Origin: Candidatus Cloacimonadota bacterium
GTDB taxonomy: Bacteria; Cloacimonadota; Cloacimonadia; JGIOTU-2
Direction of reading: 5' to 3'
Assembly (NCBI GenBank): GCA_049903315.1
Contig: JBNGBT010000005.1
Coordinates: 96,001-160,000 of the forward strand
DNA length: 64,000 nt
Below, piece after piece: positions 54,058 to 57,871 of this stretch (position 1 is its first letter; every line of letters starts with the position of its first letter). A model generated the notes under the pieces. That model had not been told where the DNA came from. It ran no database searches and saw only the letters and a list, made by a program, of their open reading frames with translations. A program made the position numbers and the translations under genes.

Positions 54058-54996
54058 ATGAAAAAAACACATATCATTCTCATTCTTATCATTCTACTGG
54101 CTATTATCGTAGTTTTCAATGCATTTTATATTATTGATGAAAGACAACAGGTGATTATCACTCAGTTTGGCAAACCGATAGGGGAATCGATCCAAGCTGC
54201 TGGATTGCATGTGAAGATACCCTTTTTCCAGAAAGTCCATTATTTTGATAAAAGAATACTGGAATGGGACGGTGATGCAAAGCAAATACCAACGTCAGAT
54301 AAGCGATACATCTGGCTCGATACTTTCTCCCGCTGGAAGATCGTCGATCCTTTAAAATTCTATGAAACAACTCGTTATGAAGGCAATGCGCATAGCAAAC
54401 TGGATGATATTATCAGTGGAATAACGCGAGATGTAATCAGCTCAAATAGATTGTTAGAAATTGTGAAAAGTTCTAATAGAGAAATGACCTTTACTTCTGA
54501 ATACTCAGATAGTAAATTGGTTGATGAGATCAAAGAAAAGATTGTTAATGGTCGTCAGGCAATTGCAGATTCGATCTTTAAACTCTCAAAAGTAAAAGTT
54601 GCCGAGTATGGTATCAATCTCATCGATGTTCGTATAAAAAGGTTGAATTATAATCAGGAAGTCCAGTCAAAAGTATTTGAAAGAATGATCTCGGAAAGAA
54701 ATAAGATTGCTGCAAAATATCTGTCTGAAGGAAAAGGGAATTCTTCTGAAATACTCGGTAAAATGCAGCGAGAGCTGGATCAAATTCAATCCGAAGCATA
54801 TCAGAAAGCTCAAGAGATAAAAGGAAAGGCTGATGCTTTGGCAATCACGATCTATGCAAACGCATATAATAAAGATCCTGAATTTTATGAATTTCTGAAA
54901 ACACTGGAAACGTATGAAAAGACGATTGATAATAAAAACACTATCATTATGACCACTGACAGTGATTACTATAAATTCCTCAAGAAAATCGAGTAA
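54058..54996 (+). CDS. hflC: FtsH protease modulator HflC
   Basis: QFGK, GLH.KIPF, DVRIKR, RMISER, DPEFY.F; aggagg SD. Confidence 0.95.
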   Translation: MKKTHIILILIILLAIIVVFNAFYIIDERQQVIITQFGKPIGESIQAAGLHVKIPFFQKVHYFDKRILEWDGDAKQIPTSDKRYIWLDTFSRWKIVDPLKFYETTRYEGNAHSKLDDIISGITRDVISSNRLLEIVKSSNREMTFTSEYSDSKLVDEIKEKIVNGRQAIADSIFKLSKVKVAEYGINLIDVRIKRLNYNQEVQSKVFERMISERNKIAAKYLSEGKGNSSEILGKMQRELDQIQSEAYQKAQEIKGKADALAITIYANAYNKDPEFYEFLKTLETYEKTIDNKNTIIMTTDSDYYKFLKKIE

Positions 54997-55304
54997 ACGA
55001 AAGGTAAATATCAAAATTAATATAATAAATAAAATTATGATTTGAGTGCCATGATTCATTGATAAATCTGGTAAGTAAATATCTTCACTATATAAATTAT
55101 CAAGGATAAAAATTCAAACAATTTGTCCAATTCATGCAGGTTTTTTTTGGCTAAAGATTCTGTTATAGAGGTAGTTTATAAGCAGGATTTATTTGCAATT
55201 GTTAAACTTGACAAGGGTTTATGGGCACAAACTTTATGGCACTACTTGATGAAAATGTCATAGATATAGTTATATAAGCGAAGTGAGAATTTTTAGGAGA
55301 CATA

Positions 55305-55736
55305 ATGAAAACGACATTGCCAAAAGTCGATGCAATTGAGCATCATTGGTATGTGATCAACGCAGAAGATGCTGTACTTGGCAGATTATCTACCAAAGTC
55401 GCAGAACTTCTTAGAGGAAAGCATAAACCGACTTTCACTCCATTCTTTGATATGGGTGATTTTGTTATAATATTGAACGCTGGAAAAGTAAAAGTTACAG
55501 GCCAAAAAGAATTTGCAAAAGAATACAAGCGATATTCCGGTTATTCAAGCGGACAGAGAGTGACTTCCTTCCAGCAAATGCGAGAAAACAATCCGGAACA
55601 GATCATATATCATTCTGTAAAAGGCATGCTTCCGAAGAACAAACTTCGTGACAGGATGCTCAAGAGACTCAAAATTTATACCGGCAATACTCACAATCAT
55701 CAGGCACAACTGCCTAAAGAAATTAAAATTTCTTAA
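55305..55736 (+). CDS. rplM: 50S ribosomal protein L13
   Basis: WYVI.A...LGRL, GKHKP.FTP..D.GD, KGMLPKN. Confidence 0.98.
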
Positions 55737-55753
55737 TTTTAGGAGAAATATAT

Positions 55754-56140
55754 ATGCAATATTTTGATGCAATTGGCAGGCGTAAAAACGCCGTTGCACG
55801 TGTTCGTTTATCCAAAGGAACCGGAAAAAGAATCATTAATAAAAAACTTATGAAAGATTATCTCAGTAGAGAAACTCTTGAAATGATCGTCGAAGAACCT
55901 TTCAAGCTTATTGACCAGTCTGAACGATTTGACATGAAGGTCAATGTTCGTGGCGGGGGACTTTCCGGACAAGCCGGCGCAATCCGTCTTGGCATCAGCA
56001 GAGCTCTTTTGGAGTATGATCCTGAACTACGAGGGATCCTGAAAAAAGAAGGACTTCTTACACGTGATGCTCGCGAGAAAGAACGCAGGAAATACGGACT
56101 TGCAAAAGCACGAAAAGCATATCAGTATTCAAAGAGATAA
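55754..56140 (+). CDS. rpsI: 30S ribosomal protein S9
   Basis: GRRK.AVARV, GGG.SGQAGA, ERRKYGL.KARK..Q.SKR. Confidence 0.98.
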
Positions 56141-56157
56141 AATATATTTAATCAATT

Positions 56158-56243
56158 AACTTCAGAGCCGCAAACGGTGCTCGGATTTTCCGAATATATG
56201 TGGCGTTGATGAAGTTAAAATAATAAACCGTTGGAGGACACAC
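56158..56243 (+). promoter_or_regulatory. Structured rpsB leader (probable S2 autoregulatory element)
   Basis: aacttca/tgaagtt, gccgca/tgtggc and tcgga/tccga stems; aacggt can pair with accgtt next to the SD. Confidence 0.65.
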
Positions 56244-57263
56244 ATGAGTGTCGTTGAAATGAAAAGTCTTCTCGAGGCTGGTGTTCATTTTGGTCATCAA
56301 ACTCGACGCTGGAATCCTAAGATGAAACGATATATCTTCATCAAAAGAAATGGGATTCACATCATTGATCTGAAACAAACCCTCGAAGCCATCAACCAGG
56401 CATATTATTTTATCAGAGAACTTGCAGCAAAAGGTCAAAGAATCCTTTTTGTTGGAACAAAAAAACAGGTGTCTGAAGGCATACAGAATGCAGCAGAAAA
56501 ATGCGATGAGTTCTTTATCAGCAACAGATGGTATGGTGGTACGTTAACAAACCTGAAAACGATCCGACAGAGCATATCAAAGCTGGATGAATTTGAAAAA
56601 TTGCAGGAAACAGGTGAAATCAATAAGTTCACCAAACTCGAAGTGCTCAAAATGCAGAGGAAGTATGATAAGATACTCAGCGCACTTGGTGGAATTCGTG
56701 ATATGGATGAAACACCAGCAGCATTGTTTATTGCAGATATTGTCTATGAAAGAAATGCAGTGAGTGAAGCCAAAAATCTCGAGATTCCTATTGTGGCTAT
56801 TGTGGATACTAATGGTGATCCTGATGGCGTTGATTATGTAATACCCGGTAATGATGATGCAATGAAATCCGTAAATCTCATTTGTGATATAATGGCAAAT
56901 GCTGTTATAGAAGGAAAGAAGATCGCTGCTGAAGGTGGAGATATTTCCGAATTTGAAGTAGCAAAAAAGGATGAAGAAGAAGTCGTTGAAGTTGAAAAAG
57001 AAGAAATCACAGAAAATGATGAGAAAGTGGTTGAAGAAGTCGTTGAAGAAGATGTAGAAGAAGAGCCGGTAGAAAAAGAAACGAAAAAAACAAAAGAAGA
57101 GAAACCGAAAAAAGAAGAGAAAAAGACCAAAAAGATAAAAAAAGAACCAGAAGAAATTATTGAAGAAAAGAAAGAAATCCGTTTTGAATGCCCCGACTGC
57201 GGTAAAACATTCTCGTCAAAACGTGGCTTAAAGATCCACCTCGGATTGGTTCATCAAAAATAA
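56244..57263 (+). CDS. rpsB: 30S ribosomal protein S2 with acidic/basic extension and C-terminal C2H2 zinc finger
   Basis: LLEAGVHFGH, WNPKM, FVGTKKQ, DTN.DP, PGNDDA; tail FECPDCGKTFSSKRGLKIHLGLVH. Confidence 0.97.
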   Translation: MSVVEMKSLLEAGVHFGHQTRRWNPKMKRYIFIKRNGIHIIDLKQTLEAINQAYYFIRELAAKGQRILFVGTKKQVSEGIQNAAEKCDEFFISNRWYGGTLTNLKTIRQSISKLDEFEKLQETGEINKFTKLEVLKMQRKYDKILSALGGIRDMDETPAALFIADIVYERNAVSEAKNLEIPIVAIVDTNGDPDGVDYVIPGNDDAMKSVNLICDIMANAVIEGKKIAAEGGDISEFEVAKKDEEEVVEVEKEEITENDEKVVEEVVEEDVEEEPVEKETKKTKEEKPKKEEKKTKKIKKEPEEIIEEKKEIRFECPDCGKTFSSKRGLKIHLGLVHQK

Positions 57264-57277
57264 TATACGGAGCTATT

Positions 57278-57871
57278 ATGGAAATTACAGCAAAACAAGT
57301 AAAAGAGTTAAGAGATAAAACAAATGTTGGTTTGATGGAATGCAAAAAAGCATTAGCAGAAGCAAATGGAAATGTTGATGAAGCAGTGAAGATCCTGCGC
57401 AAAAAGGGAATTGCAAAAGCCGAAAAGAAAGCCAGCAGAGATTCCAGCGAAGGCATTATTCATGCATATATACATCCGGGTGCAAAACTTGGTGTACTGC
57501 TTGAACTGAGCTGTGAGACAGATTTTGTTGCACGCACTGATGATTTTCAGGAAATGGCAAACCAGATCGCAATGCATATTGCTGCGACTAATCCAATGGC
57601 TATTTCTGAAGAAAATATTGATCCAAAAATTATTGCAGAAGAAAAAGAAATTTATAAAGCTCAAGCGCTCGCTGCCGGCAAACCCGAAAATATCGTTGAC
57701 AAGATCATTGAAGGTCGCCTTAAAAAATATTATACTGAGAATTGTCTACTCGACCAACCCCTTGTCATGGATGAAGACATCACTATTAAAGAGCTCATAT
57801 CTAATGCAGTATTGAAGCTTGGTGAAAACATCAGCATAAAAAGATTTGCACGATTTCAAATAGGAATGTAG
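57278..57871 (+). CDS. tsf: Elongation factor Ts (short form)
   Basis: VKELR..T..G.MECKKAL, E..CETDFVA, GENI...RF.R. Confidence 0.97.
   Translation: MEITAKQVKELRDKTNVGLMECKKALAEANGNVDEAVKILRKKGIAKAEKKASRDSSEGIIHAYIHPGAKLGVLLELSCETDFVARTDDFQEMANQIAMHIAATNPMAISEENIDPKIIAEEKEIYKAQALAAGKPENIVDKIIEGRLKKYYTENCLLDQPLVMDEDITIKELISNAVLKLGENISIKRFARFQIGM

Follow-up and report, generated by a model that had tools for sequence, protein, structure and literature searches.

A single C2H2 zinc finger at the end of a flexible uS2 tail in a clade of Cloacimonadota, a putative binder of duplex nucleic acid

In one clade of Cloacimonadota, the ribosomal protein uS2 carries a single C2H2 zinc finger at the end of a long disordered tail. 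The fusion itself, its single origin, the purifying selection on the finger helix and the predicted fold are regarded as established. As for the function, the finger is, with a probability of about 0.45, a leashed and weakly specific binder of duplex nucleic acid, which would act through the minor groove on the back side of the 30S subunit. Bacteria have almost no classical C2H2 fingers, yet in this case a whole clade has one fixed on a ribosomal protein that is essential; the original prediction had called such fingers uncommon in bacteria, and a share of 0.003% of genes has been reported (PMC3541406). No paper on the fusion of a finger to S2 was found in the literature searched, where most subscription journals and the bioRxiv supplements lay beyond the search. 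The definition of the finger subtype, its mapping to the minor-groove residue of R2, the selection figures, and the tests of Shine-Dalgarno (SD)-poor initiation and of the leader are new in the present work.

The window, which is the whole stretch of 64,000 nucleotides that was analysed, has the usual gene order of rplM, rpsI, rpsB, tsf, pyrH and frr, where the genes from rplM to tsf were assigned by Pfam, and pyrH and frr were named from their translations. The features of the rpsB region are given below.

55305-55736, + strand: rplM (PF00572), upstream, ordinary context
55754-56140, + strand: rpsI (PF00380), upstream, ordinary context
56156-56232, + strand: leader RNA of rpsB, a long nested stem in which 56156-56163 pairs with 56211-56218
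56233-56237, + strand: Shine-Dalgarno sequence GGAGG of rpsB, seen in the sequence and conserved in the finger-bearing leaders
56244-57263, + strand: open frame of rpsB, 339 codons in a single frame, C-terminus ...FECPDCGKTFSSKRGLKIHLGLVHQK-stop
56244-56936, + strand: uS2 core, residues 1-231 (TIGR01011, PF00318, Foldseek)
56937-57182, + strand: disordered linker, residues 232-313 (pLDDT, composition, low identity)
57183-57254, + strand: single C2H2 zinc finger F314-H337 with HX4H spacing (PF00096, invariant columns, predicted fold)
57261-57263, + strand: stop codon TAA, two residues past the last His (sequence)
57278-57871, + strand: tsf (EF-Ts; PF00889, E 4.2e-41), 14 bases after the S2 stop and second gene of the rpsB-tsf unit

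The core of the protein is an ordinary bacterial uS2. PF00318 (Ribosomal_S2) spans residues 9-224 with an E value of 4.8e-92, the TIGR01011 score is 326.6 bits against a cut-off of 76.3, and the comparison with a bacterial uS2 using Foldseek gives a target-normalised TM of 0.93 and an rmsd of 1.8. S2 gives a single match per genome in 39 of 41 genomes. At the other end of the same frame, PF00096 (zf-C2H2) matches residues 314-337 with 26.8 bits in the whole protein and 30.2 bits in the tail alone, where the cut-off is 25.2; the fusion of S2 to a C2H2 finger, as originally predicted, is thus borne out by two domains above cut-off in one frame. The predicted motif F-x-C-x2-C-x3-F-x5-L-x2-H-x4-H is matched exactly by F314, C316, C319, F323, L329, H332 and H337, which provide the ligand spacing and the aromatic/Phe/Leu core of PF00096. 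Among 22 loose C2H2-like matches in the 2.96 Mb genome, scanned in all six frames over stop-free stretches of 60 aa or more, this finger is the only strict C2H2 match. Neither a Myb domain nor a reverse transcriptase was found in the S2-finger protein by Pfam.

The linker comprises about 82-83 aa and is acidic at first, then mixed Lys/Glu, with a net charge of −15 in the first half and +1 in the second half, which agrees with the predicted stretch of about 80 aa that is Glu-rich and then Lys/Glu-rich. The AlphaFold2 model gives a pLDDT below 50 for residues 236-310 and 84-91 for the finger blocks, and the uS2 core is confidently predicted. Modelled in isolation, the finger is predicted to form a beta hairpin and a helix (pLDDT 85), and this model resembles the finger of Tramtrack (2drp) with a TM of 0.81, an rmsd of 1.3 and an E value of 0.09. 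All of the fold-search matches to the finger have Z below 5, and the subtypes of the finger cannot be ranked by fold search. A search of the ESM Atlas returned generic C2H2 clusters, of which those bearing taxa are archaeal; a search with the full S2-finger protein returned no match. The finger presumably binds zinc. From textbook polymer estimates, the reach of such a linker is typically about 8 nm, and 30 nm when fully extended.

In two runs, each from a different study, a single contig covers positions 56100-57400 with 0 differences, which supports the sequence across the linker. Because either run may be the source of the window DNA, the relatives are stronger evidence than the runs. In these relatives, the Cys and His ligands are invariant in 14/14 aligned tails, by which an assembly artefact is refuted; in addition, 20 genomes carry the finger, and its dN/dS is 0.02. 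The probability that the fusion is an artefact of assembly or a chance motif is therefore negligible, even if we consider that the assembly of the window genome is not flawless, having a 16S contig with a chimeric 3' tail and a foreign 16S in the bin. The contigs from RNA runs are pieces of relatives only, and none of them bridges the linker. A low-depth contig of a relative from one such run (X15) covers the finger at window positions 57181-57272, and the five differences listed within the finger are all silent and at third codon positions.

The finger is present in 18 of the 30 S2 loci fetched from relatives and absent in 12. When a profile of the finger was compared with 232 Cloacimonadota genomes, 28 matched at an E value of 0.01 or better; 20 of them have strong matches (E 4.7e-16 or better), all at rpsB, and the other 8 have weak partial matches only. 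The 20 genomes are the window genome, 18 of the 20 other members of its family and a second family's sole genome. Of the window genome's family, two members lack a strong finger match; they have no S2 match at all, and the locus is therefore probably unassembled in them. In a tree of the S2 core, built from 29 Cloacimonadota rows, with the fragment L004 left out, and 8 outgroups, all 17 rows that bear the finger fall into a single clade with a support of 100/98, whose sister is a finger-less genome of the same order (G022), although weakly supported (84/40). This topology points to one gain of the finger, and no loss was seen, as 17/17 rows of the clade keep it.

The wider searches gave the same lineage. 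Those close homologues that have a name carry the label Cloacimonadota, among them one Candidatus Celaenobacter antarcticus, and a search of GTDB with the S2-finger alignment matched 24 stretches, where 14 were confirmed among the matches listed, corresponding to 13 loci, all in Cloacimonadota. In viral contigs, five pattern matches were seen and none was confirmed as a relative of the S2-finger. No second finger of the same kind was found in the window genome, and no strong match was found elsewhere in the 232 genomes (20/232 all at rpsB, plus one weak partial match), which argues against a donor within the genome. A donor was not found, the subtype being present nowhere else in the phylum (232 genomes); an archaeal or viral donor would be the likeliest origin.

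The finger is more conserved than the rest of the protein. Over 16 full proteins, the linker has a mean pairwise identity of 0.34, compared with 0.80 in the core, 0.82 in the finger and 0.94 in the finger helix. The dN/dS determined using the Nei-Gojobori method falls from 0.055 in the core to 0.020 in the finger and 0.012 in the helix, as obtained from few sites in nine related genomes of the genus. The helix is the near-invariant S-K-R-G-L-K-I-H-x-G-L-x-H, and besides the ligands, K321, S325, K326, R327, G328, K330, I331, G334 and L335 are invariant in 14/14. In all 18 finger-bearing loci, there is one finger, which is terminal with the stop two residues on and has a net charge of +3 to +5, and the linker varies in sequence but keeps to a length of 64-91 aa. 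Since residues other than the ligands are invariant and the helix is more constrained than the core, what is conserved is, as far as can be judged from the alignments, a binding surface and not only a metal site. The predicted module tethered to the 30S subunit is retained in this sense, as a putative nucleic-acid or protein binder on uS2 that is kept by selection.

The same figures bear on the idea that the finger serves an abundant protein as a store or sensor of zinc, or that it is a near-neutral appendage retained just for its folding. Ribosomal proteins do store zinc in other bacteria, as reported for the swap of bL31 paralogues (PMC10931766), and most Cloacimonadota do without the finger. 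However, metal storage needs the four ligands only, and the surface residues K326, R327, G328, K330, I331, G334 and L335 are as invariant as the ligands. The higher constraint on the helix than on the S2 core and the absence of loss in 17/17 clade rows also argue against this idea, which we consider quite improbable.

The finger belongs to a mostly prokaryotic single-finger subtype, C-x2-C-x7-RGL-x-I-H-x-G-x2-H, whose other carriers include viral nucleases. In the search for homologues of the tail, besides S2 and multi-finger eukaryotic proteins, single fingers were found on archaeal eS24 (P0066; 67% identity to the S2 tail finger, E 2e-6) and, as a weak match (E 1.1), on archaeal uS3 (P0086), and a search from the eS24 finger added archaeal eL32 (P0241). 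The pattern C-x2-C-x7-R-G-L-x-I/V-H-x-G-x2-H was then scanned, which matched 15 viral and at least 121 metagenomic stretches; 132 frames were recovered among the matches listed, 18 of which are of the S2 type, and the invariance of the pattern positions in this wider set is by construction of the search pattern. Pfam, run on 62 of the non-S2 frames, named archaeal-type uL24 (3 loci), TFIIB (2), DsbA-like thioredoxins (4), HNH and restriction-type (PD-(D/E)XK-type) nucleases, a PKD protein, small stand-alone proteins, and some eukaryotic-looking and transposon proteins; many frames had no name. A hydrophobic segment was present in 17 of the 132 frames listed, mostly after an N-terminal finger, and many of these 17 frames have DsbA-like domains; many of the fingers in the 17 are acidic.

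Of 719 fingers in the 48 multi-finger proteins from the tail search, 1 has the full signature of the subtype, as against more than 100 metagenomic and viral frames. The subtype is thus a portable single finger, common on archaeal-type and viral proteins, and not part of a Krueppel array. The term Krueppel-type in the original prediction does not fit for this reason, and also because there is neither a tandem array nor a TGEKP linker and the spacing is HX4H. Within the subtype, the finger of S2 has an invariant Leu at helix position +10, a place mostly taken by K, R, Q or H in the 88 other distinct fingers (Leu in 1/88), and this Leu gives the S2 finger a hydrophobic face.

Several other carriers of the subtype have arrangements of their own. 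In archaeal uL24 (L094:1986-2507, L174, L203), eS24, eL32 and uS3, the finger follows an E/K linker. Membrane-anchored DsbA-like, PKD and unnamed proteins (L090, L101, L114, L123, L131, L151, L158) have one finger on a terminal tail, which is often acidic, and TFIIB homologues of 761-921 aa (L095:285-3047, L121:573-2855) end in a run of several widely spaced fingers of the subtype. An unnamed protein family of about 139 aa (L105, L111, L115, L139, L187, L191) has the finger at its N-terminus; two paralogues lie side by side in L115, and the members tested have no Pfam or NCBIfam match.

The residues of the helix indicate how a duplex might be contacted. A Krueppel-type helix has polar base-reading residues at positions −1, +3 and +6. 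In standard numbering, positions −1, +2, +3, +6 and +9 of the S2 finger helix are Ser, Arg, Gly, Ile and Gly, where Ser, Gly and Ile at −1, +3 and +6 are found in 14/14 in place of a polar base-reading set. The helix is thus a poor set for major-groove reading. Two profiles of the subtype match the R2Bm protein (8gh6/8ibw) over the whole finger with E values of 6.5e-5 and 2.5e-5, in which R, G, L, I/V and G are fixed by the search pattern and one profile (A6) was chosen with the R2 motif already in mind. The A6 profile gives 27.6 bits on one stretch of R2Bm, whereas no single finger of the five top multi-finger entries listed exceeds 18 bits. The mapping is ungapped, profile positions 2-27 corresponding to residues 111-136 of the R2Bm chain and positions 3-25 to residues 113-135, and it places the invariant Arg (R327) on R2Bm residue 125, an equivalence read from the match coordinates alone. 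R2Bm was absent from the best 60 matches when the S2 fingers alone were used and from the lists of the fold search, and no matching motif was seen in the single supplement of the R2 paper.

In the published structure, the helix of the N-terminal zinc finger of R2Bm binds a widened minor groove, where Arg125 is hydrogen-bonded to an A-T pair (PMC10499050). Finger 1 of R2Tg is also reported to insert in the minor groove, via different residues (PMC12222951). The next whole-finger match of the subtype profiles is finger 1 of OsSUF4 (6J0D), which its authors modelled on the major-groove side without a co-structure (PMC6611904).

In the preferred reading, the finger would be a zinc-stabilised basic beta-beta-alpha module on a flexible leash of about 80 residues at the solvent side of the 30S subunit. 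Its helix would lie in the wide minor groove of a duplex with little sequence specificity, and Arg327 would be the reading residue, by analogy with Arg125 in the N-terminal finger of R2Bm; a placement in the minor groove is proposed since neither the Gly at +3 nor the Ile at +6 is a usual base reader of the major groove. Single fingers usually bind nucleic acid weakly. The leash would let each 30S subunit hold nearby duplex, which would raise the local concentration. The candidate duplexes are the structured leader of an mRNA at the exit side, a helix of rRNA from the same or a neighbouring ribosome, and DNA next to RNA polymerase, and the ligand may be RNA or DNA. The binding of duplex nucleic acid is supported by the consistently basic finger, in which K321, K326, R327 and K330 are invariant in 14/14, and by the occurrence of the subtype on proteins that act on nucleic acid, namely uL24, TFIIB, HNH and PD-(D/E)XK-type nucleases, eS24, uS3 and eL32. 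As the ribosomal positions of the proteins bearing the subtype differ, a generic ligand is favoured. The finger would lie close to the SD chamber, to bS1 and to the place of mRNA delivery by RNA polymerase (PMC10983998), and the dsDNA-binding single finger AFV1p06 and the Rho_N and HhH modules on other uS2 tails, described below, also speak for this reading. The acidic fingers on the proteins with hydrophobic segments tell against this reading and fit protein docking better.

Protein docking is the main rival and a serious one, which we regard as possible though rather unlikely. The helix face formed by R327, G328, I331, G334 and L335 would bind a partner protein, for which bS1, a factor of translation or of transcription, or a second finger carried by another ribosome can be proposed. 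The single fingers of EEA1 and of the UBZ class do bind proteins, and the complex of EEA1 with Rab5 (3mjh) and NDP52 (2mxp) are among the tied fold matches to the finger (Z 3.5-3.7). The small and hydrophobic residues that line one face of the helix are invariant, the Leu at +10 sets the S2 version apart, and the subtype occurs on the tails of membrane proteins, often as an acidic finger. However, nucleic acid is common to bacteria, archaea and viruses, and no partner protein obviously is; the finger of S2 is consistently basic, it is the only finger of its kind per genome, and it was gained without loss of S1, S21 or long HPF.

The original prediction had offered two specific uses for the finger. 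The first is that the finger helps initiation on SD-poor mRNAs, as might be suggested by the position of uS2, which is reported to border the SD duplex and to anchor bS1 where RNA polymerase delivers mRNA (PMC10983998), in agreement with the predicted proximity of S2 to the SD helix and its binding of S1. SD-like words were found upstream of 837 of 1804 crude starts (46%), with a peak at 8-11 bases upstream, as against 6.9% of 1756 internal ATGs, and the value of 46% is a lower limit, since the first ATG often does not mark the true start. The canonical anti-SD is exact in two of the five genomes searched (G009 and G015), and the 16S of the window genome ends before that site. S1 is present in 5/5 genomes and S21 in 40/41. 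Since SD words are common, the anti-SD is found, and S1 and S21 are intact, a role in SD-poor initiation is very unlikely.

HPF was found in 39/41 genomes, in frames of 170 aa or more save one fragment, and S1, S21 and long HPF occur in finger-bearing and finger-less genomes alike. The finger as a compensation for lost factors was considered and rejected from these counts (S1 5/5, S21 40/41, HPF 39/41). No clade-specific insertion of the 16S was seen in the seven regions viewed, including h26, where the sister genome G022 has no 16S and several rows are partial. The 16S of the window genome, on contig C33, departs from its genus relatives in the last 130 bases or so, which is probably a chimeric contig end, and contig C39 holds a different 16S fragment, probably foreign.

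The second proposed use is autoregulation, where free uS2 would grip the stem of its own rpsB leader with the finger. A structured leader does precede the gene. Besides the long nested stem, the AACGG of an internal loop (56173-56177) can pair with CCGUU (56228-56232) just 5' of the SD, forming a pseudoknot. In the leader alignment, 95.9% of the cells are paired and a two-sided change is seen in 10 of 25 pairs, a value reached in 0 of 500 shuffles; the pseudoknot helix is invariant in 15/15 finger-bearing leaders, and hence covariation lends it no support. This architecture corresponds to the rpsB motif described by Meyer et al. 2009 (PMC2704228), and uS2 is reported to repress rpsB-tsf in E. 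coli (PMC10931766). The covarying rpsB leader is conserved across Cloacimonadota and was missed by Rfam: no rpsB-type match was found in 54900-57400, where three chance snoRNA matches lay below the gathering score.

A minor-groove binder could hold such an RNA stem. However, the 12 finger-less relatives keep the stem and the pseudoknot in the same layout as their finger-bearing kin, so the finger is not needed for leader control and is at most accessory to it. In E. coli, uS2 is reported to repress without a finger (PMC10931766), and the subtype also occurs on proteins that have no such role. Autogenous control as the purpose of the finger is therefore improbable.

Other bacteria carry different modules at the same place of the tail. 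Among the best 150 of 19003 S2 representatives, a sample that is biased to long tails and is no census, the C2H2 motif was found in two, both of the type of this lineage. Rho_N was found at the end of 6, and DUF4332/HhH at the end of 1, of 14 Pfam-searched proteins picked by eye, which were 12 S2 and two archaeal proteins. Both Rho_N and HhH are nucleic-acid binders. Tails of uS2 that end in a small module are thus already known, and the C2H2 version appears to be new; C2H2 would be one of several interchangeable modules at this tail end, together with Rho_N and the helix-hairpin-helix. No sign of a substitute module was found in the finger-less Cloacimonadota, where Rho_N and bL21 frames were checked. 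Rho_N occurs in the phylum in one frame of about 420-450 aa per genome, with the exceptions of an extra 92-aa frame in G013 and a 216-aa frame in G002, and the bL21 frames are short save one of 239 aa. The latter (L256, G001:C56 15521-15826) is an open frame twice as long as in relatives, which may be an upstream stop-free run.

Other proteins of the window genome, named by eye, also have long E/K tails without a finger, namely a bL17-like protein with a frame of 256 aa (G000:C22 near 192691) and two proteins that resemble ATP synthase beta and GyrA (C70 near 73652 and C69 near 109899). A bS1 frame of 814 aa (G000:C11 near 421747, L210) is extended at its N-terminus by about 170 E/K-rich aa and ends in an acidic tail, and the extensions are shorter in relatives.

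Long tails of ribosomal proteins with terminal modules are common and unexplained, and a 26-residue finger with a predicted reading residue, R327, is a small handle on what such tails bind. If the finger binds DNA, it would be an overlooked component of ribosome positioning and coupling; if it binds a protein, it would point to an unknown partner of the ribosome. A broader proposal, which we consider unlikely, is that bacteria and archaea have repeatedly leashed small duplex-binding modules to surface ribosomal proteins, as an unrecognised and interchangeable "ribosome leash" to chromosomal DNA or to the transcribing complex. The modules would be the R2-like finger on uS2, uS3, eS24, uL24 and eL32 and, on the uS2 of other bacteria, Rho_N or HhH. 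If this were true, the leash on uS2 would hold the 30S subunit where RNA polymerase delivers nascent mRNA, giving coupling without a NusG bridge.

Among the known systems, the closest in architecture are the tailed uS2 proteins with Rho_N (PF07498), with DUF4332/HhH (PF14229, PF14520), of the NF051451 "sunset domain variant" and of PRK12311, which have, as in the present protein, an intact core, the rpsB-tsf-pyrH-frr order, a low-complexity tail and a small terminal module. The S2-finger protein differs in that its terminal module is a C2H2 finger, and it scores far below the cut-offs of NF051451 (284 vs 710 bits) and PRK12311 (283.5 vs 526). With the classical eukaryotic C2H2 fingers (PF00096; Tramtrack 2DRP, CTCF, SALL3/4 and the HX4H finger of ADR1, 1PAA), the S2 finger has the ligand spacing, the F/F/L core and the beta-beta-alpha fold in common, but it is single and terminal, has no TGEKP linker and has Gly and Ile at +3 and +6.

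Two prokaryotic C2H2 proteins, neither of which is among the matches listed for the subtype profiles, are also comparable. A C2H2 protein of 47 aa in the ribosome of Thermococcus kodakarensis (PDB 6SKG chain Bo; E 0.022, Z 3.1) places a C2H2 finger in a ribosome structure, although it is a stand-alone protein, unlike the finger attached to S2. AFV1p06 (PDB 2LVH) is, like the S2 finger, a prokaryotic single classical finger; this archaeal-virus protein is reported to bind dsDNA at micromolar levels and not ssDNA (PMC3541406), but it stands alone and has Glu as the fourth ligand. The N-terminal zinc finger of R2Bm (8GH6, 8IBW) resembles the S2 subtype in the whole-finger profile match, in the Arg at helix position +2, which corresponds to Arg125, and in its classical fold. 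In R2Bm, this finger works beside a Myb domain at one rDNA site, and R2 is reported to need that domain beside the finger (PMC10499050), whereas the finger of uS2 stands alone on its leash.
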